64,000 bases of DNA from Longimicrobiales bacterium (GTDB lineage: Bacteria; Gemmatimonadota; Gemmatimonadetes; Longimicrobiales; Gaopeijiaceae), in NCBI GenBank assembly GCA_965202805.1, contig OZ241869.1, positions 3,584,001-3,648,000 of the forward strand, in the 5' to 3' direction. The position numbers were made by a program, and so were the translations under genes. Positions 20,902 to 58,690 of this stretch are shown here, one piece after another. Under the pieces are notes generated by a model. It was not told the origin of the DNA and ran no database searches. It worked only from the letters and a program-made list of their open reading frames with translations. Position 1 is the stretch's first letter. Each line of letters begins with the position of its first letter.

Positions 20902-22040
20902 CGGCTGGGCTCTTCGAAATCGGTTCTCGATAGGGGATGCCGGGGCTGACCCGTAGGTTGTCGAACGGCAGGCGCTGAATAATGGCGGCATCTTCGCCGC
21001 GCTGTCCAGGCGCCGACGCGGGCCCGGCGCGTGCCCCGCTCTTGGTTCTCTCCGACCGCCCGACCCGAGCGTTGACCCGAGGTCCATTACCCCGGGGACT
21101 CGCTGACCGGCACCATTCGCGGCCCTGCCGCTGTCAGGATTCGGGGTGCTCAAACGTTGTAGGTGAGTGGAGAACGCACCTTGAACGCAAACGGGAGTGG
21201 GAGGATGACCGGGATGTTATGGACGACTGATTCGACAGGAAGGGTCTCAAGGACCATCAGCCCCGTGGGCGGCTGATGATCGCGGTGCTCGCCTCCGAGA
21301 GCGCGTGGGCGGAGATACAGGCGGTTGCCGGTGACCGCCGGTGTATCCTGGCGGGGGATCAGGACGAGCTCTTGCGGCTAGCCGGTGACGCCGACGCAGT
21401 CGTAATCGAAGCCGAGAATCTCCTGCCAGTTCTTTCCGCCGTTCGACACATCAATCGGGCACATCCGCTCCTGCCCGTCATTCTCATCACCGGCCAGGAC
21501 TCAGCCGACTTTCGGCACCTCGCCTCAGTCTCCGTCGAGGCCGTTCTCCTTCGGCACCAGATCGCCGCACGTCTCCCAGTCGCGCTGAGGAGCTCGGCCG
21601 GAATCGTCTTCCGGCTTCGAGCGCTCGGAGAGGGATGCATGAGGAATGAGTCGATCCCGTCACCACTTCGTCGCTTGCTGAATTGTGCCCTGACCAGCGT
21701 GCCGCCACCCCTTACGGTCCAGCACTTGGCTCGTCTCCTGCATTCCGATCCATCCACGATCCGTCGGCACTGGCGTCGCGGTGTCAATTCTCACGGGATC
21801 CAGCGGGTCAAGGACCTGTTGGATTGGATCACTCTACTGCACGCGCTCTCGGCGCAGCACCCGAACCTAAGCTGGCGGTGTGTGGCCAGGAGCATCGGTA
21901 CACACGAGAGGACGCTGAGACGCCTAGCCAACCGTTGCGCTGGCGGCACGCTCGGTTCTCTCGGCGCCAACGGTGTCGAACAGCTGCTTGAGTGCTTCGC
22001 GACGGCCCTTGCGGACTCATTCTGCACGAAATTGCGCTGA
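20468..22040. repeat. ~1.6 kb direct repeat, copy 1 (M14 5' half + intergenic region + regulator)
   Basis: Aligns by eye with 26865-28443 at an offset of ~6400. Confidence 0.92.
21276..22040 (+). CDS. Transcriptional regulator: degenerate receiver-like domain plus two HTH motifs (AraC-like), copy 1
   Basis: DAVVIE...HPLLPVILIT receiver-like fold lacking canonical phospho-Asp; TVQHLARLLHSDPSTIRRHW and SWRCVARSIGTHERTLRRL HTHs. Confidence 0.7.
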   Translation: MIAVLASESAWAEIQAVAGDRRCILAGDQDELLRLAGDADAVVIEAENLLPVLSAVRHINRAHPLLPVILITGQDSADFRHLASVSVEAVLLRHQIAARLPVALRSSAGIVFRLRALGEGCMRNESIPSPLRRLLNCALTSVPPPLTVQHLARLLHSDPSTIRRHWRRGVNSHGIQRVKDLLDWITLLHALSAQHPNLSWRCVARSIGTHERTLRRLANRCAGGTLGSLGANGVEQLLECFATALADSFCTKLR

Positions 22041-22314
22041 GGTGTCGCGCCTTGGTTACTTGCTGCCCGGTGCAACGGGCCCGACCGCGCGCTCTACGTC
22101 GCTCGGCCATGGTCCCCACAGTCACGGTCCTTCTCTCTCGCTGGCTTAGGTGCCTCGTCGGATCCGGTGGGCAGGTCAAGGACCGGATGATTTCCTTTTT
22201 GGCGGCCTTACGGGTGCGGTGGGTCGGGGACATTCTTTGGTTGGCCGACCTCAAACGGATCCAGCGTATCGTCACGGACGAGCGTGTTCAGGACCAGGTC
22301 ATCCAGGGCCGCTC

Positions 22315-22584
22315 ATAGGCCAGGCGGTCCGGCAACCGCCTGAGCCCCCGCGGATCGTGCGACAACCGCTTCACCAGCGTCGACTCCCGCACGCCCTCCG
22401 GAAGCACCGCCATCATCACGCTGTCCTTGTGGACATCCATCCCGACGTACACCTTGGCCCTGTTCTTCATGGGGCCGGTCTCCTGTTCCGGTTGCGACCT
22501 CAAGCGTCGCATGTGGCTTTGGCACCTCCGCTCACCGCAGGCGCTAACCCACGGTAAGTCGGCAGGCCGGCCCTTTCCATGTTT
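22315..22584 (-). mobile_element. IS110-family remnant (non-coding end plus transposase N-terminus)
   Basis: ATG 22470: MKNRAKVYVGMDVHKDSVMMAVL, the GxDxxK start of the IS110 DEDD domain; homology ends after ~50 aa; ~110 bp structured upstream end abuts CTAG at 22585. Confidence 0.8.
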
Positions 22585-23934
22585 CTAGTCGGGCGAAGGC
22601 CACTCGACCTCGAATCTTGCTATGTACTGGACGTCAAACTCGTCCCTGACCACGGCCCAGATTGTATCACCCCTGAAGTAGGGATCGGTTCTCCCAGGGT
22701 AGGGGTTTGCGTCCCAGGTCTCAGGTGTATTGACGTGACCGATCCAGCGACCGTGTGTGTCAAAAACATCGAAGCCGTCCGTTGGATTCCAGTAGGTCCA
22801 GAACCGCCGCGACAGTATGCGCTCACCCCCGGGCTGCTGCCGCAGATAACGCTGTTCCTCGTCGGTCCAAGGGCGGCTCCAGCCCGGAACTCCTGGCCAG
22901 GCCCACAATCGGCCCTCGTCGGTGATCCAGAGTCGAAGGAACGCGGGACGCCCCCGCGGAAGGATCGTAGTCGGAGGAATCGGTCTGGATTGGCCTGCGC
23001 GTCCAAGCTGCGCGAGAGTTTCGTTATCACTGCGCCGACCTAGGTTCTGAATCCGGAACCCGTCAGACCAATACTCATGCTCGTCCTCCGTTCTCATCGG
23101 CGGCTCCCACGCTCTCGCGAGCCGGGTCATTCCGGCATCCGGCCGGATGAGGTTGATCGCGTAGCTGGCAGAGCACCCGAAGGCCAATGCGCCCGGTCGA
23201 TTCCGCGACCATTGCGCGAAGGGCATGTGGGGGAGCCGGTTATCCTCCATGAACCCTCCGGAGTATTGCGGAAGTCGCCGCTCGCAACCGTCCCAGGCTC
23301 GAGTTGGCAGAAACACAGTGTCCGTCACCTCTTCGTGGCCGATCAGCCTGCCGAACAATGGTCTCTGCAGAGTGCCCGCGGAGCCGCTCCGCGGGGGGTT
23401 GAGCGCGATCCAGAGTTGACCGTCATCGTCCCATCGGATGGCGTCCCGTCCGTATCCGGGTCTTCCTGCCGACGGACTCAGTCTGATCTCCCGGACTAGG
23501 GTGCCATCGGGCGAAAAGGCATTGACGCGCCGATTGCCCAAGTCCAGCACGGCCAGCAGTCCGTCGGCGGAGAGGTCCATGCCGATCACGGACCTCACCT
23601 CGCCGGGTCCTTGGCCCCGGCGAGCGATCGTCCTGACGTATGTGCCGTTCGCATCGAAGTGTCGAAGATTACCACGATCGGCGACAAAGACACTTCCGTC
23701 CGGGCCGACAGTAAACATCGGCGCCCCGCTTATCAGGTACTCAGGCGGACCCTCCACCATGCCAATTCGCGATACCTCACGAAGGGACGCCGTGCCTCGA
23801 AGGGGCGAGGACGAGAATACGAACGTGGTGTCACCCAGCTGGCGCGACCAGCCCAGCGGTGACGAGCTCGGGGTTCCGGCGTCACATCCGACTGCCACAA
23901 GCGTCGTGAGAACCATTGCCGATGCGCGACTCAT
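22585..23934 (-). CDS. 6-bladed beta-propeller lipoprotein
   Basis: Lipobox VAVGC; IGMVEGPPEY, IARRGQGPGEV, DVFD..GRWIG, D..DVQYI motifs; GGAGGAG RBS. Confidence 0.85.
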   Translation of the reverse strand: MSRASAMVLTTLVAVGCDAGTPSSSPLGWSRQLGDTTFVFSSSPLRGTASLREVSRIGMVEGPPEYLISGAPMFTVGPDGSVFVADRGNLRHFDANGTYVRTIARRGQGPGEVRSVIGMDLSADGLLAVLDLGNRRVNAFSPDGTLVREIRLSPSAGRPGYGRDAIRWDDDGQLWIALNPPRSGSAGTLQRPLFGRLIGHEEVTDTVFLPTRAWDGCERRLPQYSGGFMEDNRLPHMPFAQWSRNRPGALAFGCSASYAINLIRPDAGMTRLARAWEPPMRTEDEHEYWSDGFRIQNLGRRSDNETLAQLGRAGQSRPIPPTTILPRGRPAFLRLWITDEGRLWAWPGVPGWSRPWTDEEQRYLRQQPGGERILSRRFWTYWNPTDGFDVFDTHGRWIGHVNTPETWDANPYPGRTDPYFRGDTIWAVVRDEFDVQYIARFEVEWPSPD

Positions 23935-23969
23935 AGCTCCTCCTGCATTTGTCCAGGGACTCCTTTAGC

Positions 23970-23999
23970 ACGATGCGAAGCGGCAGAGCGGCTTGTCAA
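23970..23999 (-). promoter_or_regulatory. Putative sigma70 promoter for the 23934 gene
   Basis: Perfect TTGACA (23999-23994) then CATCGT 18 bp downstream on the minus strand. Confidence 0.4.
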
Positions 24000-24062
24000 A
24001 CCGAGACGCGTCGCAAGGAGAAAGATCCGGGCACATTGCTAGCCGGAGCGCAGCAGACCCCT

Positions 24063-25253
24063 TCAAGAAACCGGCAATGCCGCACTGTGACAACTGGATT
24101 GCTCCGCGGCATCACGGGAAAACGGACTCTTATACGCGAACACAACGGTGTCCCGTTCACCGGGCAGCACGACAGATGCGAAGAGATGGTCGAGTGTGGC
24201 AGCCAGCGCGCGAATCTGGGCAACACCTAGATCGAACGCACGGTATGCCGTCCCATCCGAAGCCATGGTTCCGAGGATCGGTGTCCGGTCCTCCCGAAAC
24301 TGTTCAACAAAGAAGTTGCCCTCCGGGTCCATCGTAAAGCTGTCCGCGTGCCGTGCCGCCGCAACCGCCGTCTCTCCTGCAATACCGTCTCGCAAGACGA
24401 TGCTCGGAGGATCCATCTCGAAGAAGAGCGGCAACGCGTGGGAGGCAACTGCCGACGACTCGGCCTCCGAGAGATCGTACGCGAAGAGGCGCCCATCGAC
24501 GCGTCGCAGCGTCCACAAAGTCTTGCCCCGAACGAGAAAGTCACCTAGGCTGAGGGCCCCCACATACTCGGGTCCTCCAGACCTGACTACCTCACCCAGG
24601 TAGCGCTTGAGCCGCCCGTCGCTTCCCCACACTCGTACGATGCCTGGATAGTCGGCTAGGGTCCCCCTCCACAGTGGTTGCTCGATCAACGCGCCACTCG
24701 AGTCGAGGGCAATGCGATTCGCGGCAATCAGGTTGCTCCCCTCACGTTGGATAGGGATCTCCATCATCGAGAGCAGGCGGCCTTCGGTGTCGACGCGAAC
24801 CACCCTACCTTGGCCTCGATCGCTCACGGCGACGATATCTGGGGTCACGGCCTCCAAGTCGCTCAGATCCGTAACGAGCGGTGTCTCACGACCGCCCAGA
24901 AAAACGCTCTGTGCGTACGCCGCACGGGAACCGCGGAACCAGTGAATTGCGATGTCCGAGGCGTCCCCAATCACGACCGTGCAAGCCGGAACGCCGAACA
25001 CCGCCAGAGCAACCGCACTCCGCATCCGGAAGGCCTCGTGCCCGGGTAGCTTCAGCTGAAAGATAGGCTCAAGATCTTCTACATCCGCAGCCGACATCGG
25101 CGTTCGGTTTCGATCGATCTCGGCAAGGACATCCTCACTCAACTGTGCGACTACGGATGGCGGAAGCTGGTCCGCACATCCTCCGACAGATGCTAGCGCC
25201 AATAGTATTGCGGTCCGTGCCGAGAGTCCATCTAGGAAGCAAGGCTTCTTCAT
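24063..25253 (-). CDS. Beta-propeller-like lipoprotein
   Basis: Lipobox VGGC; NHL-like blades (IVAVSDRGQGRVVRVDTEGRL, IALDSSG, FTMDPEGNFFV). Confidence 0.72.
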   Translation of the reverse strand: MKKPCFLDGLSARTAILLALASVGGCADQLPPSVVAQLSEDVLAEIDRNRTPMSAADVEDLEPIFQLKLPGHEAFRMRSAVALAVFGVPACTVVIGDASDIAIHWFRGSRAAYAQSVFLGGRETPLVTDLSDLEAVTPDIVAVSDRGQGRVVRVDTEGRLLSMMEIPIQREGSNLIAANRIALDSSGALIEQPLWRGTLADYPGIVRVWGSDGRLKRYLGEVVRSGGPEYVGALSLGDFLVRGKTLWTLRRVDGRLFAYDLSEAESSAVASHALPLFFEMDPPSIVLRDGIAGETAVAAARHADSFTMDPEGNFFVEQFREDRTPILGTMASDGTAYRAFDLGVAQIRALAATLDHLFASVVLPGERDTVVFAYKSPFSRDAAEQSSCHSAALPVS

Positions 25254-25888
25254 GTTCCGGTTGGGTTAACGGACGTAACCGCGCCCACCACCGACAGCGC
25301 GGGGTCAGCAGCAATCGTACAGTCATCAAGAAACGCGGACGCAGGCAACAGCCTACGTTCACTGCCTGCGTCAACCACAACGCCGCGACGGTCCATCACG
25401 AGATGAAGAGGTGAATGAGATAAGCCGGCGCTGCCGATGAAATCGACTTTGTCACGAACGTAGAAGGTCGGAGACGGGAAGGCCGGATCGAAGAGGTCAT
25501 CCCGTCCCGTAACCTCCTCCGCGGCAACCCAGAAAGCCTGCCATCCGTCCGGCATGCTGTCACCGGCCGGATCGTTGAGGGCAGTGGACATCCAGCGATA
25601 CGCTGCCGTCCTGGCGTAGGGGCAGGTGCGAGTCCCGATGACTATATAGCGGCACTTGCCGGCCCCAACATCGCTCAGACTCTGAACCGTCCCGTTCTCG
25701 TCCGATACAACCAGCGCGTCCACAGGTCGACCCACCGCAGGCGTTGCGGTTGACATTGCCTCCTGTATCTGCCGTGCCTCTCGGCCTTCCGCCCATGCCT
25801 CTACACCGTAACTTGCGATGCCGGCGACGAGAAGTACCGCAATGGCATCCAATATTCGCGCCTTTGACAACCTACTGATCTGTGTCAT
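25250..25888 (-). CDS. Membrane-anchored redoxin/thioredoxin-like protein with degenerate active site
   Basis: N-terminal TM; G..V...V.DENG....L; TCPYA in place of CxxC; SP.HLVMDRRGVV cis-Pro-like loop; ATGA overlap with next gene. Confidence 0.6.
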   Translation of the reverse strand: MTQISRLSKARILDAIAVLLVAGIASYGVEAWAEGREARQIQEAMSTATPAVGRPVDALVVSDENGTVQSLSDVGAGKCRYIVIGTRTCPYARTAAYRWMSTALNDPAGDSMPDGWQAFWVAAEEVTGRDDLFDPAFPSPTFYVRDKVDFIGSAGLSHSPLHLVMDRRGVVVDAGSERRLLPASAFLDDCTIAADPALSVVGAVTSVNPTGT

Positions 25889-26118
25889 GAATGATGGTCC
25901 CCCATTCAGGGTCGCACTCGTTTGTGTTGATTGACGGACGACACTGGACCCTCGACACCGCCGCCCTTGGGCAAGACATCAAGTCCGTGCCGAGGCGATG
26001 TGTACGACAGCCGACCTTTGACCGGCAGCACCGCCCGACTTCTTGAAGCCCTAGGAACTCCCCCGCGGGCCATTTGAGGGACGCTAGCGTTCTAGACGAC
26101 TACACGAACGCAGGCGCC

Positions 26119-26331
26119 TCATTCGTCGCAATCGGCATCATTCCCGTCCTCGCAGCACGCATACGACATCGCGGTGCAGGCGAGACCCGTACAATACCAG
26201 CCGCTGCTCGAAATCCCGCATGAGTACACGGGGGGGATTGCTGCGGTCGCTAGCCTTGGTACCCAAAGCGCGAGATTCCCGGCGAGGAGCGCCAGGACGA
26301 CAGGAAGCCGAAGCAGTAGTGCGCGAGACAT
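26119..26331 (-). CDS. Small secreted cysteine-rich peptide (70 aa)
   Basis: GGAGG RBS then MSRALLLRLPVVLALLAGNLALWVPRLATA|AIPPVYSCGISSSGWYCTGLACTAMSYACCEDGNDADCDE; signal peptide plus 6-Cys core. Confidence 0.8.
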   Translation of the reverse strand: MSRALLLRLPVVLALLAGNLALWVPRLATAAIPPVYSCGISSSGWYCTGLACTAMSYACCEDGNDADCDE

Positions 26332-26448
26332 GATCCCTCCTTGGAGTGAACGCAGTAGTTTGTGTGAAGGCGGACGCCCAGTACATCCAGCAGGAGTTCC
26401 CGCCACCAGTACCTGTAAATCTATCTGAGCGAGCCGCGAGGATACAGT

Positions 26449-26482
26449 GACAATTTCGCGCATTTTAGGACAAATCCGCGCA
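26449..26482 (-). promoter_or_regulatory. Direct-repeat operator candidate upstream of the peptide gene
   Basis: GACAATTTCGCGCA and GACAAATCCGCGCA at 20-bp period; related motif at 34420-34446. Confidence 0.5.
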
Positions 26483-26529
26483 CAATGAGTTCCGAAGAGA
26501 CTCAACGAAGCACTCGAGTAGTCGCTCGG

Positions 26530-26863
26530 CACCGGCGGTGCAGCGCCGCCTCCAGCCGCGCGTCGTCCAGGTCGTCCGGCAGCGGCCAGGACACTCCCGC
26601 CTTCCGCGCCTGCCGGACATAGCTGCCGACCGTGCTGTGGGAGATCCGGAGGATGGCCCCGATCTCCCGGTGGCTCCGGCCGAGTCCGTACTTCAGCCGG
26701 AGAACATCTCGAATCTTGCACATGGACAACTTCTTCCGGGCCACCGTCTTCCTCCTCGCTCAAGGATCTCTCGCGAGGTTGGAAGAGACGAGTGGACGAA
26801 ATGAATCGGAATCAGTGGACAGCTTCCGTCGGAATGGATGGACGAAATGCGTCGGAATCAGCA
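26530..26863 (-). mobile_element. IS21-family (IS408-like) remnant: left end plus truncated istA
   Basis: MARKKLSMCKIRDVLRLK...SHREI...STV..Y...AGVSWPLPDDLDD..LEAAL (26744 downward); end begins TGCTGATTCCG at 26863 with three ~21-bp TGGAC..CGGAAT subterminal repeats (26791-26860). Confidence 0.88.
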
Positions 26864-27298
26864 GGTGGCGAGGCGTCGGGCATCGCGGTTCACGTCGATC
26901 CCGGCCGCATTATGGCGCTGAAAGCGGGCCGCGCCGTCGGGGTTGAGCAAGGGAACGATATGCAGGCTCAGGCGGCGGGACAGCGCCCGGACCAGGCCGT
27001 GCTCCGGGTGCCGGGCCAGAAACGCGAAGAGTCCGCCAGCGCCATGGTCGCCGTGTTCTCGTCCCCGTGCATCTGGGACCAGGCGAGCACTCCCACATCA
27101 CCCTCGCCGACCGACACCATGCGGAGCGGCCGTCCCTTGGCGCTCTCTCCCACTCTCTCGCACGCCAGCGCGGCGCTGCCGCTCAGGGATGGGGTCGAGG
27201 GCGTTCGAGTAGGCCCCTGGCCCGAAGCGTCGTTAGTCGAGCCTTCTCACGCGCGCGACGTCATGGAGTGCGCTCAGCTCCGTGGTGAGTTTCGGCAC
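26864..27298 (-). pseudogene. Truncated, frameshifted second copy of the M14 carboxypeptidase
   Basis: Homologous to 20468-20901 (WSQMHGDENTATMALAD); indels relative to copy 1; cut at the IS21 end. Confidence 0.88.
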
Positions 27299-28443
27299 CG
27301 GCTGGGCTCTTCAAAATCGGTTCTCGATGGGGGGAGATGCCGGGGCTGACCCGTAGGTTGTCGAACGGCAGGCGCTGAAAAAATGGCGGCATCTTCGCCG
27401 CGCCGTCCAGGCGCCGATGCGGTCGCGGGGGCAGGCCCTTCTCTCGGTCCTCTCCGACCGCCCGGCCCGATCGTTGACCCGAGGTCCATTACCTCGGCGG
27501 CTCGCTGACCGGCACCATTCGCGGCCGTGCGGCTGTCAGCTTTCGGGGTGCTCAAACGTTGTAGGTGAGTGGGAGAATGCACCTTGAACGCGAACTGGAG
27601 GAGGAGGATGACCGGGATGTTATGGATGCCTGATCCGCCGGGACGGGTCTCAAGAACTCTCAGCCCCGTCGTCGGCTGATGATCGCGGTACTCGCGTCCG
27701 CGAGCGCGTGGGTGGATATACAGGCGGCTGCCGGTGACCACCGGTGTATCCTGGCGGGGGATCAGGACGAGCTCTTGCGGCTAGCCGGTGACGCCGACGC
27801 AGTCGTAATCGAAGCCGAGAATCTCCTGCCAGTTCTTTCCGCCGTTCGACACATCAATCGGGCACATCCGCTCCTGCCCGTCATTCTCATCACCGGCCAG
27901 GACTCAGCCGACTTTCGGTACCTCGCCTCAGTCTCCGTCGAGGCTGTTCTCCTTCGGCACCAGATCGCCGCACGTCTCCCAGTCGCGCTGAGGAGCTCGG
28001 CCGGAATCGTCTTCCGGCTTCGAGCGCTCGGAGAGGGATGCATGAGGAATGAGTCGATCCCGTCACCACTTCGTCGCTTGCTGAATTGTGCCCTGACCAG
28101 CGTGCCGCCACCCCTTACGGTCCAGCACTTGGCTCGTCTCCTGCATTCCGATCCATCCACGATCCGTCGGCACTGGCGTCGCGGTGTCAATTCTCACGGG
28201 ATCCATCGGGTCAAGGATTTGTTGGATTGGATCATCCTGCTGCATGCGCTCTCGGCGAAGCATCCAAGCCTAAGCTGGCGGTGTGTGGCCAAGAGCATCG
28301 GAACACACGAGAGTACGCTGAGACGCCTAGCCGACCGTTGCGCTGGCGACACGCTTGGTTCTCTGGGGTCCAACGGTGTCGAGCAGCTGTTTGAGCGCTT
28401 CGCGACGGCGCTTGGGGACTCATTCTGTCCGATTTTGCGTTGA
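26865..28443. repeat. ~1.6 kb direct repeat, copy 2
   Basis: Aligns with 20468-22040. Confidence 0.92.
27679..28443 (+). CDS. Receiver-like/AraC-like HTH regulator, copy 2
   Basis: 254 aa; 20 substitutions versus copy 1 by manual count. Confidence 0.7.
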   Translation: MIAVLASASAWVDIQAAAGDHRCILAGDQDELLRLAGDADAVVIEAENLLPVLSAVRHINRAHPLLPVILITGQDSADFRYLASVSVEAVLLRHQIAARLPVALRSSAGIVFRLRALGEGCMRNESIPSPLRRLLNCALTSVPPPLTVQHLARLLHSDPSTIRRHWRRGVNSHGIHRVKDLLDWIILLHALSAKHPSLSWRCVAKSIGTHESTLRRLADRCAGDTLGSLGSNGVEQLFERFATALGDSFCPILR

Positions 28444-28563
28444 GTTGCGCGTTCTTGCGCCAGGACAATCTCGAGGCGAGTACAGATGGTTCGACCCGTA
28501 ACCCGCCTTGCCGCGACGGCGTAGCTGTCTCAGGGGAGGACTGACTTGTACAGACTATACCCC

Positions 28564-29649
28564 CTACCGCGTACCAAAGACGCGCACCTGAGGGAACGGT
28601 TCTTCGCCATAAGTGAAGATGAGCCCATCCCTCACGGAGCCGACCACTCCAACTGTGGGGTGCCGATCAATCACTCGCCCCGATGACACATCCAGGACGA
28701 TGAGCTCATGACGCCGGTTCTCCGCAGAGCGGGGGCCTTCGATTTGAAGCCCAAGCACCACGTTACCGCCACGATCCACAACGACCGACCGGCCTGAGTG
28801 CGAGAAGCCCTCTTCCGGGTCCGGACGATACCGGCAGCACACGCCGGGTCTGCTTGCCGTGAGCTGCCAGGGAACGTAGCCTTCGAGCGTCGTCTCCCAG
28901 AGTATCTCTCCCTCGGGGTCGAAGGCTCGAACCACCGGTAACATCCAATTGAACTTCACGATCGTTCCAGTAGCTTCATCGCACGCGAGGTAGCCGTAGT
29001 TGAGCATATGCGGTGTCTGCCCCAGCTCACGACGTTGGGCAGCCTCTCGCGGCTCCTCGGGGCTCGCAAAGCCCCGAATCACCTGACCGTCACTGTCGAT
29101 CTCGCTGATCGTGGGATCAGTTGGCCCTCCGGGCTGGCGCAGAACGTACCGTCGTCCTCCGAGTACACAAACGTCCGTTGGAGGGAACCTCAAAGTTGTC
29201 ACCGTCCTGAAGGCGAGAGTGTCTCCATCGAGTTCGAAGGTGCTGATCCGCCCGTTGGCGACATCCGCGACGTGAAGAACCCCTTCCGAATCGAGATCAG
29301 AGCCACGAATGCCCAGGAGCTCGCGAGGGCCCTGCCCTCGCCGCCGGTATGAAGTGATGTGACCGCCGTCTCGATCGAATACGTGAATATCGGAAGTCTG
29401 CTCCCCCAGAACGTAGACGTTGCCGGCGGCGTCTACCTCGATCGTGCGGAGAAGACCGAACACCTCAGCGTCGTCGCCGTCCAACCGTCCGATGGTCATC
29501 TGCAGATCCGCCGGCTCCCACAGCTGGGCCGTCACGGGCTCGACCAGCGGGGTGGACGCAATAGACCCGACGACGCCAAGCAGCGTGAGGGCATGACGCT
29601 CCAAGCGGAACAGGTGGGTACTACGCATACCACGCAATTGAGCACTCAT
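28564..29649 (-). CDS. 6-bladed beta-propeller protein, secreted
   Basis: IGRLDGDDAEVFG, VDAAGNVYV, RRGQGPRE, EEPFPQV C-terminal motif. Confidence 0.82.
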   Translation of the reverse strand: MSAQLRGMRSTHLFRLERHALTLLGVVGSIASTPLVEPVTAQLWEPADLQMTIGRLDGDDAEVFGLLRTIEVDAAGNVYVLGEQTSDIHVFDRDGGHITSYRRRGQGPRELLGIRGSDLDSEGVLHVADVANGRISTFELDGDTLAFRTVTTLRFPPTDVCVLGGRRYVLRQPGGPTDPTISEIDSDGQVIRGFASPEEPREAAQRRELGQTPHMLNYGYLACDEATGTIVKFNWMLPVVRAFDPEGEILWETTLEGYVPWQLTASRPGVCCRYRPDPEEGFSHSGRSVVVDRGGNVVLGLQIEGPRSAENRRHELIVLDVSSGRVIDRHPTVGVVGSVRDGLIFTYGEEPFPQVRVFGTR

Positions 29650-29850
29650 GGGGTTACCCTCCGGATCGCGGTCTCAAGTTCCAGCGAGTCTACGACGCCA
29701 TAAGCCATTACGCCGTTTACCAGAATCGTCGGTGTCCCCTGTGCACCGAGTTCCGTGGCAGCAGCAACGTCATTTTCGATGAAAGATACCGGTGACTCGT
29801 CCGCCAGGCAAACATCGAAGGTGGCCATGTCCTGAATCCCGGCCGTCAGG
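29646..29850 (-). pseudogene. C-terminal fragment of a DsbA/thioredoxin-like protein
   Basis: AGIQDMATFDVCL...D...A.ELGAQGTPTILVNG; no CxxC-bearing N-terminus recognisable upstream; ATGA overlap with the propeller gene. Confidence 0.7.
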
Positions 29851-30086
29851 CGGCCCCCATCTTCGACGGTCTTGCCGGCGACCCATCCACCGGCGAGTGC
29901 TCGGCACGACTCCCGACGGCCGGGCCATCCTCCAACGCACCAAGACGAGCGCAGTGGATCTAGTCCGGAGACCGCGGAGTCCGGGTCGGGTACCTTAGAG
30001 CAACACTATGCTGGTCGGTTGTACATGGATGCCCGTGTGGAACGGTTGGAGTCACGTGCCTGTCAAGACGCCCATTGGGTCCCAAA

Positions 30087-30868
30087 GTGAGCCGGATTGA
30101 GGAGAGCAAGGGTTCGAGCTTGGCGCGTCGTGTTGCGGGGTTTTCGGGTCTGGTTCTCGGTAGCCTCTTCGCAAGCTGTTCGTCCGGCGACGATCTCGTC
30201 GAACTCCGCCCTCCGCCTCCGGACACGACTCCTCGCAATATCGGAGACACGGTTCAGCGAGGGAGCTTGACGGTCACGGTGACGGCGGCTGGGGAGACAA
30301 GCCAGGCGGTTGGGGCTCTGGCGACTCCAGCCGACGGCGTGCCCCGGGCGCACGTCAGAATCCGCCGCGTCGGCGAGTCGCCGGTCGAGGTGGGGACGAC
30401 GGACTTCCTCGGGCGAGTCACCTTCACCCAGCTTCTGCCCGGCCGATATGACATTACGTCTCTTCGCCTCCTTAACGCAGAAGAAACGGCCAGGATCACC
30501 GAGGCAAACTCGGCGCTGGCGGGCATCAACGCCTTCGGGGGTGGCGGCCGCGTCCAGGTTCAGCCGCCGTCAAGCACTACGGAAGTCGCAGCGGTGGCCG
30601 GTCGCCGGGGCTCCCTGGTAATCAGCGAGATTCATGACTGGTGGCCGCGCGTCACAAGTGGCCCCACTGCACAATACACCCAGGTAACGTACGTCGAGGT
30701 GTACAACAATTCGGACACGACCGTATACCTGGACGGAAAGATCCTTGGCGAGGGGTTCTGGTTGGGAGAGCGAGCTGAGCGAGTCCTCGTTGAACAACTG
30801 CACCGATTATGAGTCCTGGCGGATCGATCTGGAGGGCGTCTGGTCGGAGAAGCACCTGCGCTTTCCAC
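30087..30868 (+). pseudogene. Frameshifted/truncated DUF4876-like lipoprotein
   Basis: Lipobox FASC, GRVTF..L.PG.Y domain, GSLVISEI...YVEVYNNSDTTVYLDG; plausible continuation (NCTDYESWRID.EGVW...RFP) lies in another frame after ~30765 and stops at an IS fragment. Confidence 0.65.
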
Positions 30869-30975
30869 TCTTCGGCGTGGTCCTCAGCAAGATCTCCATC
30901 GTCGCTCTCGACGCCCTCGTCGCCCGGGTGATGGCCTTGGCACCCTATCGTTCGGCCCGGCGCGTCTTCTGGGTC
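30869..30975 (+). mobile_element. IS630-family transposase internal fragment
   Basis: LFG...KISIVALDALVARVMALAPYRSARRVFWV resembles the segment preceding VDN in IS630 DDE transposases. Confidence 0.6.
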
Positions 30976-31020
30976 TCCGGGGAACGGTTCCGCGCGATAT
31001 CGTCCTGAAATGCCCTGCTC

Positions 31021-31944
31021 TTATCGGTGACCTCGGCCAGCAGTCCTCGGCACACCTTCGATCGGCGGCAGTTCAACACTCGGGTCAGGCCGGACGACGA
31101 TCCGCACAGGGTCGGAGGGTGCGGCGGCGGCAAAGTACCCGTAAGCGCCTTCCAGCCCGAAGGAAGGCCATGGCTGCCGCACCGGGTATTTGCCCGACGC
31201 TTCGACGAAACTCGCGTAGTTCCGTCCCAATCCGAGCACCCGAACTGAAAGGTGCACGGGTCGGCCCAGAAAAATCCTCTTGTAGAGTGACGGGCTGGCC
31301 CGGCTCAGAGTGAGATCGGCGTTGCCTGCTTCCAGATCCAGCACGAACGGTTGGCAGGAGACCGGACCTACGGGTTCCCGGGAACCATCGGGCTGAATCT
31401 CAATCGCATCGATCACCTCCGAGTGCAGCATCGCGACATCGGAAGGGATTTCGAAGCGGATTGGCACGATGAGGTCGTCTCCATCACTCTGGGGCGGTAG
31501 CAGATGTCCGTCGGCCGGCTCGATAATCACAGGTGCGGAAGGCACAATAGTGGCGCCGCTGAAGGAACCTGACGGACCGGTGCCCGCAATTCTGTACAAG
31601 GTTCGTTCGCGGATTGGTTCCGGAAGTTGTGCCCGGAGGCACACCAGAGTGCCGGGCCATGTTGTCACGTCGGTAATCGCGCAATCGGCCAAATCCGTCT
31701 CTTCGGAGAACGCGGCCTCCCAGCCGGGTCCCATCAGGCGCACGTCGACCGCCGGAGGCGCGCCGGACTGGGCACGGTGCGGATGCGCGGCCAACAGCTG
31801 TACATCGCTCCGGCCTGCCACCAGCATCGCTGTGACAGCCAGCGCGTCCGATTCCGGAGCGAGTGGGTCTGCTGAACGAATACAACCGGCACACGCAATA
31901 GCCGCCAACGCGGTACATGGAAGCAACCCGGTCCGCAGTCTCAA
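31021..31944 (-). CDS. Lipoprotein partner of the TonB-dependent receptor (DUF4249-like)
   Basis: Signal with Cys lipobox; C-terminal S..LEGAYGYFAA motif; TTGA overlap with receptor stop. Confidence 0.65.
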   Translation of the reverse strand: MRLRTGLLPCTALAAIACAGCIRSADPLAPESDALAVTAMLVAGRSDVQLLAAHPHRAQSGAPPAVDVRLMGPGWEAAFSEETDLADCAITDVTTWPGTLVCLRAQLPEPIRERTLYRIAGTGPSGSFSGATIVPSAPVIIEPADGHLLPPQSDGDDLIVPIRFEIPSDVAMLHSEVIDAIEIQPDGSREPVGPVSCQPFVLDLEAGNADLTLSRASPSLYKRIFLGRPVHLSVRVLGLGRNYASFVEASGKYPVRQPWPSFGLEGAYGYFAAAAPSDPVRIVVRPDPSVELPPIEGVPRTAGRGHR

Positions 31945-34292
31945 AACCGGAACTCCACGCCGAAGAAGGGTAGCATCGGCATTTGGGGCAGGTACACCTG
32001 GTCGATGATGCCCGCTCGCTCGCTCCGCACCTCACGATCGAAGTTGGGCTCTGCGACCGCCGCCACCACATTCGGCAAGCTGAAGAGGTTGGCGATTGCC
32101 ACGAAGGGGGTAACCGAGCCGCCTCCGAACCAGGAGACATCGCTCCTGTGTCGCCAGCCAACATCGAGCCGCAGGTAGAGAGGGAGTCTCGCGGAGTTGT
32201 ATTCTCCTCCGAAGGCTACCATATCACGGAACACTGGATACTGTTCGAGATTCTCTGGCGAGTTGTAGTTCACGTAGGGTGCCACCGCCAGCATCCGCGT
32301 GGTCGGCTGTCCCGATCGCGCCGACACGCGACCGGACCATGAAGACCCGCCCTTCGTGACCGCTACACCAAACTCGAATTCGTGATCTCGGTGAACGCGG
32401 GGCGTGTAGGTCTCGTCACCCACCGTGCGCGAAGCCCTGCTCCAGCGGTAGCTCCCGAGGGTCGCAACCGATCCCTGGGCCCAGCTCCAGGAAGCCTCTA
32501 TGCCCCGCGCTGCCCCGCTGGCCACCTCGCGGCGTCCCGGATCGCCCAGTGTTGTCGCCCCGAGTGGATTGGTTCCAAGCTTGGGTACGCGAATGTTCTC
32601 CAGCTCTCGCACGTATCCATCCAGGCGCAGGCTGAAGAATCCACGCACCGCTTCCCACCCGACCGAGATTTCGGTGTTGCGCGGGACAGGTCCTTCGACG
32701 ACGGGGGCCAGAAGGTCGTAGGCCAGGAAGCTTGCCCCGACTGTCTCTTCGTCGCGCATGGATGACAACGTCTGGTGTGATCTGGCCGCGAGGATGCGTG
32801 CCCGCCACCACGAGCCCGAGTAGCCGAGTTCGGCAAAGGGCGCCAAGGTGGTTCCCAGCCGCGCGAAATGGTCCAGCCGCAACCCTGCTCGCGAAGACAA
32901 TCGTGGACCTAAGCCGACATCCACACTGGAATAGGCTGCAAGGCGCCACTGGGTCGCCTGCACGTGCAGAGACGACAGTATGATCTGCTGCAGATGTCTG
33001 TGCTTATCGTCCACCGCATAACTGTGGTCGGCGCTGAACCCCGTGGCCTGAACGCCCACCGTCGCGGTCGCATGGTCCGTGTATCGGGTCACACGCACGT
33101 CAGCTCGGTGTTCACTCATGAATCCGTTGCCGAGGATTACCGTGTCTTCGGGCGGCTCATAGGTCCCACGGAGCCCGGCGGCCAGCCTCCGGCCGCCCCC
33201 GAGCCCATGGATGTTGCTGGAAAAGCGGCTGTGCCCGACTGTCGCGTCAACCAGGGTTACCGGGCCGAGCCGTTGCCGGTAGTGGGCGGCTACGGCGGCG
33301 TTGCCCCAACCAAGTTTGGCAGTCTCGTTGTATTCTTCGTCGAGGTTGTCGAATGCCTCCGAGTTGATGTAGCCAGTGACCGAGAGGCGGCGAACGCCAC
33401 CGAAATCCCTCGTGACCTTTGCGTGCAGGTCATCGAACGCGTACGGGATCACTGCTTCCGTCGCGCCCATCCCCCTAAGGCCCGAGAAGATGAGATCGAT
33501 GTAGGTTCGGCGACCGTCGACAATGAAAGATGTGCTCTCACCGATCGGGCCCTCCACTGCTAGCCGTGATGAGGCGAGACCCAGCGAGCCCGTCACGCGC
33601 CGCCGGTCCCGGGCGCCGTCACGGGTCTGGATTTCGATGGCCCCCGACAACGACCCGAAAGGCTGTGCGCCTTCCGCGGAACTGGTCAGGAGAGTCACCC
33701 GTTCCACGGCCTCTGCGTTCACAGCCGACAGGAAGCCCCCAAGGTGGTGGGGACTGAACAAGCGCACCCCGTCGAGCATAACGGGCGTTTCGACGCTGGT
33801 CCCGCCCCGGATGTACGGAATTGCGGTCCAGTCCGACGGGGCCGAGGCAGATGGCGACATGGCGACCGCCCGCAGTGCGTCGGTCTCGAGTATCGTGGGG
33901 ATCATCCGCATCACTGCGGTATCGACGACAAAAGCGTCCCTGGACCGCGAGATCGGGTTGCCCACCTGCCCGCGAACGTTGACGACGATTGAGTCAATCG
34001 CGATCGGGTCAGGCCTCAACAACACGCGCAACTCCTCGCGCGGGAGTTCGGAGTAGGACTGAACCCACGTCGCATAGCCGTAGGCATCGACTTCCACGCG
34101 AACCGGCCCCGCCTGCACATTCGCCACGACAAACGCACCGAAGCGGTCCGAATCTGCCGACGCCGTCGGCCCGTCTGCGACCGAGATGGTGATACGCGCG
34201 AACCCTACGGGCTCAAGATCGACGCTGTCGCGCACAACGCCGGATAGGGGCGCCTGCTGAATGAGGGCGAGCAGCAGCGCCGCCGTAGTCAT
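31941..34292 (-). CDS. TonB-dependent receptor with N-terminal carboxypeptidase-regulatory-like domain
   Basis: LSGVVRDS..EPV, IRGG...T.VMLDG..LFSP.HLGGF.S plug, RLP.Y.RLD, C-terminal GVEFRF. Confidence 0.88.
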   Translation of the reverse strand: MTTAALLLALIQQAPLSGVVRDSVDLEPVGFARITISVADGPTASADSDRFGAFVVANVQAGPVRVEVDAYGYATWVQSYSELPREELRVLLRPDPIAIDSIVVNVRGQVGNPISRSRDAFVVDTAVMRMIPTILETDALRAVAMSPSASAPSDWTAIPYIRGGTSVETPVMLDGVRLFSPHHLGGFLSAVNAEAVERVTLLTSSAEGAQPFGSLSGAIEIQTRDGARDRRRVTGSLGLASSRLAVEGPIGESTSFIVDGRRTYIDLIFSGLRGMGATEAVIPYAFDDLHAKVTRDFGGVRRLSVTGYINSEAFDNLDEEYNETAKLGWGNAAVAAHYRQRLGPVTLVDATVGHSRFSSNIHGLGGGRRLAAGLRGTYEPPEDTVILGNGFMSEHRADVRVTRYTDHATATVGVQATGFSADHSYAVDDKHRHLQQIILSSLHVQATQWRLAAYSSVDVGLGPRLSSRAGLRLDHFARLGTTLAPFAELGYSGSWWRARILAARSHQTLSSMRDEETVGASFLAYDLLAPVVEGPVPRNTEISVGWEAVRGFFSLRLDGYVRELENIRVPKLGTNPLGATTLGDPGRREVASGAARGIEASWSWAQGSVATLGSYRWSRASRTVGDETYTPRVHRDHEFEFGVAVTKGGSSWSGRVSARSGQPTTRMLAVAPYVNYNSPENLEQYPVFRDMVAFGGEYNSARLPLYLRLDVGWRHRSDVSWFGGGSVTPFVAIANLFSLPNVVAAVAEPNFDREVRSERAGIIDQVYLPQMPMLPFFGVEFRF

Positions 34293-34419
34293 GAACCTAC
34301 GGAGGATCCGATAGTGGCCCGGCTTCGGTCTGTCATGACTCCGTCAAAGACCCCGGGTTTCTGCAGGTGCGTGACGCCGCAGACAGAGATCCCTGTCGCG
34401 ACTAGGCCAAACGGGTACG

Positions 34420-34446
34420 CGCGCGTTTCACGACAAGTGTCGCGCA
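34420..34446 (-). promoter_or_regulatory. Operator candidate upstream of the TonB-dependent receptor
   Basis: CGCGCGTTTCACGACAA matches CGCGCATTTTAGGACAA (26457-26473) at 14/17, same orientation and similar distance to the ATG. Confidence 0.45.
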
Positions 34447-34512
34447 GAACGATCCTATCCAACAAGTCCTTCATCCGGTTGGACCCCGTGGTGCCTGAGT
34501 GCGACGCCGGGA

Positions 34513-35907
34513 TCAGTACAGGAGATACCGTTCCCGCACCCGCAGGAACCCGTTCAGGTCCGGCTGCCATGCGGCGCGTATCTCCTCCAGGGACGCTCCC
34601 GCCTCGACGGCCAGGCGCAGGCGGTCGGTGCCCGCGAGGCGGTCGAAGGCGGCTTCGCGCCATTCCCACCGGTCGCCGGAAAGCGCGACCGCTTCGATAA
34701 TCGCAGCCACCGCGGCCTCGGTCGGGTCGTAGCCCGCGTCGGTGGCGACCAGCCGCACGCCTCCCACCTCGACTCCGCCGTGCTTGCCGTCGCCGGGGTT
34801 ATCCGGCACGAAGCGAACCGCCTCGAAGCGCACTCCGGCGATGCCGTAGCCGTTCAGGTTCGCGGCCAGAGCCTCCCCGTCCAGCCACGGCGCCCCGATC
34901 TGCTGAAACGCGACGGGCGTGCCGCGGCCCACGGACAGGTTGGTCCCCTCGAACAGGCAGGTGCCCGGATAGTGGCGGGCGCTCTCCACCGAAGGCATGT
35001 TCGGGGAGGGAGCCACCCACGGCAGCCCGGTGTCGCCGAACCCGTCGCCCCGGCTCCATCCCGAGAGCGGCGCCACGCCCAGCTCCACGTCCACCCCGAA
35101 CTCGCCTTGGAAGAGTCGCGCCAGCTCGCCGGGGGTCATCCCGTGCCGCATGGGGATCGGGTACATCCCCACGAAGGAGGCGAACGCGGGATCCAGCACG
35201 TTGCCCTGTACTTCGACGCCCCCGATCGGGTTGGGCCGGTCCAGCACCACGAGGGTGATCCCGGCCTCTCCGGCCGCTTCCATCGCCAGCGCCATGGTAT
35301 AGACGTAGGTGTAGTAGCGCGCGCCGATGTCCTGAATGTCGAAGAGGAGCACCTCGACCCCTTCCAGCATCTCCGGCGTCGGCTTGCGCGTCGCCCCGTA
35401 GAGCGAGTGGATCGGCAGCCCGGTGCGCGGGTCCACCCCGCTGTCGACGAGTTCCCCGGCTTCGGCCTGGCCCCGGATGCCGTGCTCCGGAGAATAGAGC
35501 GCGACCAGCTCCAGGCGCGTGTCCCGGTGCAGGAGGTCGATGGTGGAGACGCCCTCGCGGTCGATGCCCGTGTGGTTGGTGACCAGCCCGGCGCGGCGGC
35601 CTGCCACCAGGTGGATCGAGTCCGCGAGCAGAACCTCGACGCCGGGAAGGGTTTCAGCGGCCACCTGCTCGGCGATGCCGGGGCGGGTTTCGGCGGCCGC
35701 TTGGACGTCGACGCTGGGAAGGGGATCAGCGGTCGCCTGCTCGGTAATGCCGGGACCGGGTTCACCGGCTGCCTGCGCGGCAACGCCGGAAGCGTCCGCG
35801 CCCGGCTCGCGCCAGCCCCGCGCGACCAGATTGGCCGCGAGGAGGACCGCCCCCACGGCGATCAGGCCGGCACCGACCCGCGATTGTCGGAATCCTCCGG
35901 AAACCAT
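34513..35907 (-). CDS. namZ: Exo-beta-N-acetylmuramidase NamZ (DUF1343)
   Basis: GLVTNHTG, YSPEHG, SLYG.TRKPT, FDIQDIGARYYTY, DRPNP, RHGMT.GE, PSPNMP, EGTNLSVGRGT; start approximate. Confidence 0.92.
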   Translation of the reverse strand: MVSGGFRQSRVGAGLIAVGAVLLAANLVARGWREPGADASGVAAQAAGEPGPGITEQATADPLPSVDVQAAAETRPGIAEQVAAETLPGVEVLLADSIHLVAGRRAGLVTNHTGIDREGVSTIDLLHRDTRLELVALYSPEHGIRGQAEAGELVDSGVDPRTGLPIHSLYGATRKPTPEMLEGVEVLLFDIQDIGARYYTYVYTMALAMEAAGEAGITLVVLDRPNPIGGVEVQGNVLDPAFASFVGMYPIPMRHGMTPGELARLFQGEFGVDVELGVAPLSGWSRGDGFGDTGLPWVAPSPNMPSVESARHYPGTCLFEGTNLSVGRGTPVAFQQIGAPWLDGEALAANLNGYGIAGVRFEAVRFVPDNPGDGKHGGVEVGGVRLVATDAGYDPTEAAVAAIIEAVALSGDRWEWREAAFDRLAGTDRLRLAVEAGASLEEIRAAWQPDLNGFLRVRERYLLY

Positions 35908-55389: not shown

Positions 55390-58300
55390 ATGAAACACAA
55401 CCAATGTCCAACACGTAGGGTATGGGGCGCCTTCGTGCTCTCCCTGCTGGCCGTCAGCCTGGCCTTCGCGCCCGGTCTGAGCGCCCAGCAGGGAGGAGTC
55501 ATCACGGGCCGCGTCACGGAGGAAGGCTCCGGTCGCGCCCTTGCCTCCGCCCAGGTGTACGTCGAGGGAGCCGGCATCGGGACCCTCACCAACTCCAGCG
55601 GGCAGTTTCTGCTGCTCAACGCCCCCGTAGGCGAGCACACGGTCACCGTCGAGCTGGTCGGCTACCGTTCGGCCTCGCAGACAGTGACGGTGGGGGCGGG
55701 CGAGACGGCCAGCGTGGACTTCGCCATCGCCGTGACCGCGCTCGCTCTCGACGAGATCGTGGTGACCGGAACCGGCGTGGCCACCGAGAAGCGCAAGCTC
55801 GGCCACACCATAGCCACGCTCGATGCCGCCGAACTCGAGAACGCGCCCATCGCCGACTTCAGCCAGCTCATCGCCGGCCGCGAGCCCGGCGTGGTGGCGC
55901 TTCCATCCTCGGGCTACACGGGCGAGGGCGCGCGCATCCGCATCCGCGGGTCGGCCTCCCTCTCGCAGCTCAACGAGCCCATCGTCTACGTCGACGGAAT
56001 CAGGGTGGACCGCTCCGCCGTGCAGAACTTCAACGGCCAGGGCAACCCGTCCCGCCTGGACGACATTCCTCCCGAGTCCATCGAACGGGTCGAGATCCTG
56101 AAGGGCGCCGCCGCCGCGACCCTCTACGGAACCGAGGCCTCCAACGGCGTGATCCAGATCTTCACCAAGCGCGGCAACGTCGGCGCTCCGCGCTTCACCT
56201 TCCAGAGCGACCTGACCGGGATCTCGGTGCCGACCAACCGCATCCTGCCGGTTGCGGACTTCGCCGGGCGGGTATGCGCCAGCCCCGGATGCACCGGAGA
56301 CGGTGACGCCAAGAGGCTGGCCGATGCAGTGAGCCGGATGTCGACGCGCTGGGGACAGTCGGTCTCGCCATGGGAGCCGGTCCAGCGCGACCTCATCCCC
56401 GAGCTCCTCACCACCGGTTTCGGCCAGACCTACTCCGGGTCGGTGCAGGGCGGTTCCAGCGTCTTCCAGTACTTCGCCTCGGCGCGCCTCGCCAGGGAGG
56501 ACGGTCCCTACGACGCCGGGCGGAACTTCGAGGCGGTGGAGGGAGTCGAGCCCGAGAACGACACCAACCGGCGGGCTTCGATCCATTCGAACTTCACGGT
56601 GGTCCCGAACGACAATCTCCGCATTGGCGTCACCACGCTCTATTCGGACATGGAGCACCACACGCCCGACAACTCCAACAACATCTACGGGGTGTTCTCG
56701 TCCGCGCTCATGTCGCAGCCGCGGCTCGCCAACGCCGATCCGAACCTGGGGCAGATCAACTACTACGGTCAGCCGGCGTTCGCCACGCTGCGCGAAAACG
56801 CGTACCAGTTGAACTTCGTGAACTCGCAACACTTCGCGGGTGCCACCAACATCAACTTCACGCCGACCGAGAACTTCCGCCTCGACGGAACCTTCGGCAT
56901 CGACTTCACCTCCGACGACGCGGTGTCCTTCCGGCCCTACCGCTGGAACGTGGACGGCTTCTCGGGCTCGACGCCGGACGGCAGCAGGAACGTCAACGAG
57001 GACCGCAGCCGCGAGATCACGGCGGACGTCAAGGGATCCTACATCTTCAACACCGACCGGATCGAGAACACGTTCCTCTTCGGTGGCCAGGGCTTCCTCC
57101 GGCAGCGGCAGTCGGCGGGCGGCAGCGGACGCGATTTCCCCGGTCCGGGTCTGGAGACGCTGTCGGCGCTCGGTTCCGAGTCTTCCTACGAGAACTGGCT
57201 CCGGGTCACGCAGATCGGCGGATACCTGCAGGACCAGGTCGGGTGGGACAACTGGCTCTTCCTGACCGTCGGCGCGCGCTGGGACGCGAACTCGGCGTTC
57301 GGTGAGGCGTTCAACTACGCCTTCTATCCGAAGGCCAACTTCGCGGTCGTGCCGAGCGAAATGTGGGAGAGCGAGACCTTCTCCTCGCTGCGCATCAAGG
57401 GCGCGTACGGCACCTCCGGGCTGCAGCCGGGCGCCTTCGACAAGTTCACGACCTTCTCGTCGCTGGGTACCGAGGTGGGTCCGGGCGTCCAGCCCTCCAA
57501 CCTGGGCAACGACCAGTTGAAGCCCGAAGTGTCGACCGAGTGGGAGTTCGGTGCCGATCTGGGGCTCTTCAACGACCTGTGGTCGGTGGAAGCGACGTAT
57601 TGGGACCGGACGGTTACCGACGCCATGGTGGCGCGCCAGTTCCCGGTGACGGGCGGGTTCACGCAGACCCAGCTCGACAACATCGGCCAGGTAAAGGCGT
57701 CCGGGTTCGAGGTCGGCGTTCGCGGGGCCCTGGTCCAGCGGCCGGGTCTCTCGCTGAACGTCTTCGCCAACACCGCCTACCTCAAGGAAGAGATCACCGA
57801 CATGGGCGGTGCTCCTCCCCTCAAGACCGGCGGCAGCTACCCGCGCTACCGCAACTTCCTGACCGAGGGCTACACGCCCGGGGCCTTCTTCGGGGCAAGG
57901 GTCGCTGACCTGGAAATCCCGCTGAACATCCTCGCGCCGGTCAACGGCGAGTGCGTAGCTCCCACGCGCCAGCAGGCCCTCGATTACTTCAGCAAGCCCC
58001 GCAATCCGAACAGCTTCAAGCCGCTCGCGATCGGCAACGAGACCTTCGGTACGCCGAACGGCGGTCTGGCGTCGCACAACTGCGGCTCCGGGCTCCTTGA
58101 CACCTATCTCGGCAAGCCCACCCCGGATTTCGCCGGTTCCTTCGGGTTCAACCTGGCGTTCCTGGGCAATTTCGAACTCAGCTCGCTGCTCGAGTACAAG
58201 ATCGGTCACCAGGTGCAGGACCTCTCGGGGATGTTCCGCCGCGCCAACAACTTCATCGGCCGCAACACGCCGCGCTCCGCAGAGCTCTACGCGGCCATGC

Positions 58301-58674: not shown

Positions 58675-58690
58675 TCCAGGAGAGAGACTC

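Follow-up and report, generated by a model that had tools for sequence, protein, structure and literature searches.

A candidate cassette for a secreted disulfide-rich peptide, with a monothiol redoxin and propeller lipoproteins, in a Longimicrobiales bacterium

Disulfide-rich mini-proteins are mostly known from venoms, plants and animal immunity, and few have been described from bacteria. In the operons of plantaricin 423 and pediocin PA-1, a dedicated thioredoxin-fold protein, PapC (PedC/BrcD family), guides disulfide pairing (PMC7381239). Here, we analyse a stretch of 64,000 nucleotides (hereafter the window; contig OZ241869.1, positions 3,584,001 to 3,648,000) in the closed 4.02-Mb genome of a Longimicrobiales bacterium of the Gemmatimonadota (G000). 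It contains a four-gene unit (22585-26331, minus strand) in which a small peptide precursor is followed by a redoxin and two propeller lipoproteins, named prop2 and prop1. A first-pass annotation, made from the sequence alone, had proposed a Sec-exported disulfide-rich mini-protein with a redoxin and propellers in a fast-changing island, and the genes lie where that annotation had placed them.

As in the pediocin type, a small ribosomal peptide, here predicted to hold several disulfides, is encoded beside a dedicated thioredoxin-fold gene. In contrast to that type, the window precursor has a hydrophobic signal ending in A-x-A in place of a double-glycine leader, and no C39/ATP-binding cassette (ABC) transporter was found among the 16 open reading frames (ORFs) of the window that were scanned with Pfam. 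The core has a net charge of -6 and no YGNGV box, whereas the pediocin core is cationic; the host is Gram-negative, the partners are propeller lipoproteins, and the redoxin is monothiol and not matched by TIGR01295 (PedC_BrcD). Sublancin with BdbA/BdbB is a related case of a peptide with its disulfide catalysts. The biosynthetic logic, a dedicated thioredoxin for peptide disulfides, thus has precedent, but the clusters themselves are apparently undescribed: no description of them was found in the literature at the level of titles and abstract starts, a search that did not cover most subscription journals or supplements, and no paper naming NVEALA or DUF5128 was found in the same literature. 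In a genomic study of marine Gemmatimonadota, the words RiPP (ribosomally synthesised and post-translationally modified peptide), bacteriocin, propeller and peptide are absent from the main text as searched (PMC10469786).

Other known peptides resemble the window peptide in part. Bacterial defensin-like peptides (actifensin/actinomycesin, the myxobacterial ones and laterosporulin) are about 40 residues long with three to four disulfides, as is predicted for the window peptide, and they share with the related cassettes described below variable cores, tandem precursors and, for one sister type (type C), defensin-like C-termini. The window core, C-8-C-4-C-6-CC-7-C, has no match in PDB or Pfam, and only type C approaches the actifensin framework. 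In an inhibitor cystine knot the adjacent CC is at Cys III-IV; unlike a knottin, the window core has it at Cys IV-V. The NVEALA peptides of Bacteroidota are small signal-peptide ORFs that database annotation places beside DUF5128/TolB-like propellers. The window is similar in that a small signal-peptide ORF stands beside a six-bladed propeller lipoprotein; NVEALA (PF14055) matched none of the 31 peptide sequences scanned. As for the described defensins, actifensin loci carry ABC transporters and proteases, and the framework is C-x5-12-C-x3-C-x9-10-C-x4-5-C-x-C (PMC6989792); bacterial defensins of this kind were reported only from actinobacteria and myxobacteria (PMC8819291).

The four-gene cassette

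The precursor gene (26119..26331, minus strand) is preceded by a ribosome-binding site and encodes 70 residues. Judged by eye and hydropathy, about 30 of them form a predicted Sec signal with basic, hydrophobic and A-x-A parts and an Asn in the h-region. The remaining core of about 40 residues has six cysteines and a computed mass of about 4.12 kDa if three disulfides are formed. Both the cysteine framework and the acidity agree with the first-pass annotation, as does the position of this ORF at the head of the redoxin and the two propeller genes. The four-gene unit is intact in the window and also in the congener G003, in which the redoxin and the two propellers are 70-73% identical to the window copies over their full length. 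The G003 precursor is identical at 21 of 30 signal residues and at 13 of 38 core residues, and its core contains eight cysteines; in other words, the core evolves faster than the signal. The peptide ORF is coding: the substitutions between the two genes (23/22/37 by codon position) are concentrated at third positions. In a homology search of 18 congeners this G003 copy was the sole match, and no family in Pfam, NCBIfam or PDB matched the peptide. The peptide family is therefore visible only through its neighbouring genes, not by direct homology. It should be mentioned that three ORFs of this kind, each behind a ribosome-binding site, came out of a strict first scan of the whole G000 genome.

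The redoxin gene (25250..25888, minus strand) encodes a membrane-anchored CcmG/TlpA-like protein of 212 residues, as judged from profile matches, Atlas clusters and conservation. Its active site, CPYA, has a single cysteine (Cys89). A cis-Pro is found at position 160, and Cys79 and Cys190 are predicted to form a structural pair. No Pfam or NCBIfam family matched it. A profile of 12 redoxin sequences matched CcmG (E 5e-4) and DsbE (E 1e-3) in the PDB, and the Atlas neighbours are thioredoxin/redoxin clusters (0.94-0.95). The AF2 model is weak (predicted local distance difference test, pLDDT, 59), and Foldseek matches to Tpx, CcmG and ResA were below threshold (E>0.03). The protein thus has the thioredoxin fold, although the structure match is weak, the N-terminal anchor and the cis-Pro of the CcmG/TlpA superfamily, but it lacks the complete CxxC. 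CcmG, ResA and TlpA redoxins share with it the fold, the anchor, the cis-Pro loop and a site of the CxxC or CxxS type; the window redoxin differs from them in lying outside a cytochrome c maturation operon, in an extra conserved cysteine pair and in its link to a peptide gene.

An exhaustive profile search gave 251 clusters (50% identity) at E<=1e-10 and 981 at E<=1e-3; word-indexed searches had found 13 proteins each for the redoxin and prop2 and so understated the family size. In the best 150 of the 981 clusters, ranked by a profile score that itself favours such conservation, the active-site cysteine and the second, upstream cysteine were present in all 150, and the C-terminal cysteine and the cis-Pro position in 149 each. 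CxxC occurred in 95 of these 150, and CxxS/A/G/T, mostly CxxS, in the other 55. Since so many of the best homologs have no second active-site cysteine, the monothiol form is a conserved form, not a decayed one. Disulfide isomerases of the CxxS type are known in eukaryotes, e.g., ERp44 and AGR2.

The prop2 gene (24063..25253, minus strand) overlaps the stop of the redoxin gene and encodes a cassette-specific, six-bladed propeller lipoprotein of the NHL type. A conserved Cys91 and a conserved C-terminal cysteine are present. The AF2 model has a pLDDT of 81; its top Foldseek matches are NHL domains (E 3e-12), with which the PDB profile matches agree. In the Atlas, prop2 lies closest to DUF5128/TolB-like clusters of Rhodothermota and Bacteroidota. 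No family was above the cut-off for peptide, redoxin or prop2 in the Pfam, NCBIfam and PADLOC scans, and none of nine proteins matched the anti-phage defence models of PADLOC. The last gene, prop1 (22585..23934, minus strand), encodes a DUF5128/NHL-like propeller lipoprotein which falls just under the DUF5128 cut-off and is 72% identical to the copy in the G003 cassette. About 50 paralogs of its family are encoded in the genome.

Three further propeller loci of G000 were noted. At L118 (G000:C1:298445-299820) the gene of a 107-residue secreted two-Cys peptide overlaps a propeller gene, and the C-terminal motif of this peptide resembles that of a G428 peptide adjoining a redoxin. At L119 (G000:C1:3128407-3130455), in another low-GC patch, two more signal-peptide Cys-rich ORFs with six and four widely spaced cysteines precede a propeller and a pair resembling an ABC ATPase and permease; no redoxin was seen there. 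At G000:C1:3904817-3911028, five propeller lipoprotein genes of close kinship stand in tandem, and no peptide was seen among them; these could be a receptor or immunity array.

Recurrence and diversity of related cassettes

The proposed co-occurrence of peptide, redoxin and propeller genes was found repeatedly elsewhere. Over 301 genomes of the order, the redoxin profile matched 12, and all eight strong non-self matches have one or more peptides, the redoxin and a prop2-type gene. Two more such loci were found, one in G017 and one on a JGI metagenome contig (L046). When the profile was widened and run over the class (401 genomes), it matched 30 in four families, and the cassette architecture spans five families of the class. 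A prop2-type gene adjoins the redoxin in 13 loci, the window included, and all 13 carry peptides. The loci L001 and L039 are the same stretch and were counted once. Scans of the collection with back-translated patterns gave one locus each.

A fixed detector (a signal-like stretch and at least four cysteines in 45-130 residues) was positive in 17 of 23 new loci that had been chosen by the redoxin profile alone, compared with 41 of 5000 random 3.5-kb segments of G000 and none of 24 regulator loci. By eye, a peptide is present in 20 of the 23, with none adjacent in L100, L109 and L115. Among 11 earlier loci, six were positive within 1.5 kb and two more just beyond. Read from gene content, these loci represent a real family of cassettes for predicted secreted disulfide mini-proteins, which extends over the class and is apparently undescribed.

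In a hand-made compilation of 52 peptides, with cleavage sites set by a simple rule, the predicted mature part has an even number of cysteines in 49. None of 30 peptide sequences was above a Pfam cut-off; one type C peptide gave a weak Gamma-thionin match (E 3e-4) below it. An Asn lies inside the h-region in 19 of the 52 precursors, which suggests a recognition or retention element.

In a tree of 35 redoxins, the window protein groups with seven others in a supported clade (99/97). Prop2 accompanies all eight, six are monothiol, and seven adjoin CC-containing peptides. Other supported clades pair with C-5-C-1-C types and prop2, with CC-9-CC-2-CC, with helical C-3-C pairs, or with defensin-like peptides and DUF4876. 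This tracking of redoxin clade, cysteine framework and partner is consistent with co-evolution, though kin share labels. The helical C-3-C pairs (L103, L107, L108, L112, L126), some without a propeller, stand beside a CxxC redoxin and are possibly two-component. Full-length DsbA genes are found in some sister cassettes (L046, L041, L064, L122). In G015 (L041:7826-9595), a 589-residue protein with an N-terminal DsbA domain directly follows a six-Cys peptide, and its C-terminal part is weakly alignable to prop2.

Two sister types can be distinguished from the window cassette (type A). The type B operon, found in G080 and G011, consists of peptide, TonB receptor, lipoprotein, a prop3-like propeller and a monothiol redoxin. 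The receptor subfamily is present in 42 of the 301 genomes. From 79 receptor matches, 20 further loci (the five closest and a spread) were read: complete cassettes number five and partial ones two, and in the other 13 no peptide lies directly upstream. Among the five closest relatives (73-87%) there is no complete cassette. The 11 loci read around the receptor's lipoprotein ended short of the region beyond the receptor, and the detector was positive in none of them. In the type B cassettes at L085, L086, L146 and L148-L151, a Trp-rich six-Cys peptide with a Gly/Asp tail is accompanied by the TonB receptor, the lipoprotein, a propeller and a distinct monothiol redoxin, and a PAS kinase and a response regulator often come next.

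In type C, intact DUF4876 relatives flank a redoxin and defensin-like peptides (G455, G549, G505); the type C cassettes with acidic defensin-like peptides are L127, L128, L131 and L110. On sequence grounds, the type C peptides are candidates for defensin-like peptides from bacteria other than actinobacteria and myxobacteria. The genomes G192, G108 and G158, considered as an unrelated negative control, were rejected as such because they fall inside the type C clade as peptide-less members.

Proposed mechanism and rival explanations

We propose that a secreted peptide is folded with the help of the redoxin, is bound by the propellers and acts between bacteria via a receptor, not by lysis; judged from the sequences, this reading has about an even chance of being correct. 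Its starting points are the observed gene set and order, their recurrence, the exchange among congeners, the faster change of the core, the even cysteine numbers and the conserved monothiol redoxin. After Sec export, signal peptidase I would free the 40-residue core, and the housekeeping DsbA-like proteins, four of which are encoded in the genome, would oxidise it. Cys89 of the redoxin may then form a transient mixed disulfide and shuffle wrong pairings, as PapC does for pediocin. The folded peptide might be bound by prop2 as a cognate carrier or self-protection protein, since prop2 travels with the redoxin clade. The broader binders might be prop1 and the about 50 stand-alone propellers, some perhaps for foreign peptides; this binding by propellers is the weakest step. 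Passage across the outer membrane could be provided in the sister cassettes, by the TonB receptor in type B and by DUF4876 in type C. The product may be a strain-specific, target-binding factor for antagonism or recognition, which is favoured by the polymorphism among congeners and the many orphan propellers. This role is the least certain step. Membrane lysis is disfavoured by the acidic cores.

Several observations weigh against the folding and binding reading. CcmG/TlpA-type proteins are usually reductases, and two DsbD-family genes are present in the genome; the redoxin could therefore hold the peptide reduced. No outer-membrane exit route was seen in type A cassettes. Three weak matches from a sister redoxin clade (L065-L067) have neither peptide nor prop2. 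The genome encodes 51 propellers of this broad kind, and most have no small secreted ORF nearby, although two other loci have one. The cores are net negative in 44 of the 52 peptides (median -5), unlike typical antimicrobial peptides, so that killing is not implied. The 52 were taken from the loci read and include three from other places in G000. The surveyed genomes are related and kin are not independent: the recurrence counts are descriptive.

The acidic cores would also fit a ligand. Strain-specific, pheromone-like signalling, in which the released peptide is re-bound by propellers or taken up via a TonB receptor and then acts back on the regulator next to it, is considered rather unlikely. 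It would agree with the regulator copies that immediately precede peptides in G000, G003 and G015, with the TonB receptor of type B cassettes and the PAS kinase/response regulator pair behind these cassettes (G011 and relatives), and with the finding that extracytoplasmic function (ECF) or AraC-type genes flank some loci. However, type A loci have no conserved sensor kinase or anti-sigma gene, and the regulator shows neither a membrane part nor a periplasmic one and does not stay with the cassette beyond the genus. The same acidic residues, the CcmG/DsbE-like redoxin and the TonB receptors of type B could instead belong to a metallophore or metal buffer, with the cysteines kept reduced by the redoxin, metal bound by thiols and acidic residues, and the peptide recovered by TonB receptors or propellers. 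This is improbable: even cysteine numbers run across many frameworks, some of them defensin-like; DsbA genes occur in sister cassettes; hypervariable cores are unexpected for one metal; and no recurrent metal-homeostasis gene was found in the loci read.

NHL propellers include the peptidylglycine lyase, and prop2 is strictly tied to the cassette, with polar Arg207, Asp244 and Thr245 conserved in ten sequences. These features would suit a modified RiPP, in which prop2, as an NHL/PAL-like enzyme, would amidate, cyclise or trim the peptide after folding. Nevertheless, the best structural matches of prop2 are non-catalytic NHL and WD40 binding domains, its only five invariant columns are mostly Cys, Gly or Pro, and the peptides have no common C-terminal processing motif, so that we regard such an enzyme as very improbable. 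We think just as little of a host-directed effector of a sponge symbiont, which would target sponge cells, for example as a protease inhibitor or a receptor ligand. The occurrence of the stretch in three sponge metagenome runs and the resemblance of the frameworks to eukaryotic disulfide peptides, including the sub-threshold Gamma-thionin match, agree with it, but the architecture is found in five families of the class and also on a JGI metagenome contig, so that sponge-specificity is unlikely.

Returning to a redoxin-folded, propeller-bound peptide that acts between bacteria, a wider form of it can be considered: a phylum-scale, venom-like arsenal of hundreds of cassettes, each with one of many frameworks, a co-evolved monothiol or dithiol catalyst and a propeller receptor, the other propellers serving as a library of receptors or decoys for the peptides of neighbours. 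This is possible but doubtful. If true, bacterial peptide signalling or warfare would gain a new class, and the DUF5128 propellers a function; if receptor binding holds, Gemmatimonadota would be an unrecognised source of stable peptide ligands. Biosynthetic gene cluster tools keyed on modifying enzymes would probably miss these loci. With its 981 clusters, the redoxin can serve as an entry point to many new natural cysteine frameworks, and framework-specific folding catalysts could aid the production of disulfide peptides in bacteria. The cassette also offers a direct test for the orphan DUF5128 propellers, with about 50 copies in this genome, and bears on the interactions of a mostly uncultured phylum with neighbouring organisms, in sponges and in other places.

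The surrounding island

The cassette lies in an island flanked by an M14 peptidase gene and namZ, across which the G+C content falls to 0.61-0.64 from about 0.70 outside. The first-pass annotation had read the whole region as a single system. Instead, a single intact cassette lies there together with remnants from two sister types. The region is a cassette-exchange site; congeners carry different cargo beside the same regulator family: unrelated peptides are found in G017 and G015, and only remnants in G001 and G018. Pieces matching the stretch are carried by three sponge metagenome runs, and the contigs from run X1, which may be that of the source sample, match 22428-26596 and 28176-35000 with zero differences.

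Regulator copy 1 (21276..22040, plus strand) has a receiver-like N-terminus, judged by eye, and a C-terminal helix-turn-helix (HTH) with weak matches. A 79% homolog adjoins a peptide cassette in G017. Copy 2 (27679..28443, plus strand) is 92% identical to copy 1. The two intact copies arose by duplication with a spacing of 6.4 kb, and copy 2 lies with a broken M14 peptidase copy in the duplicated segment (26865..28443, plus strand). The idea of a dedicated regulator holds within the genus but not beyond it: none of 24 loci of distant paralogs has a peptide, so that the regulator was rejected as a marker of the system. Ten regulator loci of other genera gave one remnant.

Upstream of the peptide, a 3' remnant of the regulator and a conserved promoter-like spacer (26332..26530, limits approximate, minus strand) were recognised from the G003/G015 upstream alignment; a sigma-70 scan of this spacer gave no consensus site. 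A second remnant (34420..34486, minus strand), found as inverted repeat I1 to regulator copy 2, lies upstream of the TonB receptor. The motif that the first-pass annotation had noticed upstream of both genes is the tail of the deleted regulator gene: its last codons and stop, about 145 nt before the peptide and receptor starts. The pairwise similarity was reached by 86 of 300 shuffles, i.e., not above chance, and a binding site was rejected. The regulator tail upstream of both genes means that peptide and receptor once stood behind a regulator copy.

The TonB-dependent receptor itself (31941..34292, minus strand) is of the subfamily that heads type B cassettes elsewhere and is without its own peptide here. 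Its lipoprotein partner (31021..31944, minus strand), which has no Pfam match, is directly behind the receptor in homologous loci. The receptor had been counted as part of the peptide's system; it was rejected as part of the type A cassette because no homolog of it was found in the loci L039-L043 and L058-L067.

Propeller prop3 (28564..29649, minus strand) is above the DUF5128 cut-off, is 23-28% identical to type B cassette propellers and has a 98% copy in G018. A DsbA fragment does lie beside it, as had been proposed, but this is only a C-terminal tail of 60 residues without CxxC (29646..29828, minus strand), truncated in G018 too. A DUF4876/LTD lipoprotein (30075..30812, plus strand) is truncated to its N-terminal part and is 74% identical to a 485-residue DUF4876 protein.

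Two traces of mobile elements border the cassette: an IS110-like transposase fragment (22288..22512, minus strand; weak match, E 0.06) and an insertion sequence remnant with an HTH (26502..26744, minus strand; repeat D9), which we take to be IS21 IstA-like and which cuts the regulator copy upstream of the peptide. Genes for radical SAM, YcaO, lanthipeptide, MNIO or peptidase-ABC proteins had been reported absent, and none was found with Pfam among the 16 ORFs; similarly, no modifying enzyme of these RiPP classes (bufferins included) was found in the ORFs of the window or in the related-locus proteins scanned.

Close relatives of this genome carry a Gammaproteobacteria label in NCBI, and EF-Tu groups it with Gemmatimonadota and Longimicrobiales proteins. 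Elsewhere in the window (55390-60016), genes of 1094 and 442 residues look like a SusC/SusD-type pair, judging by their N-termini.

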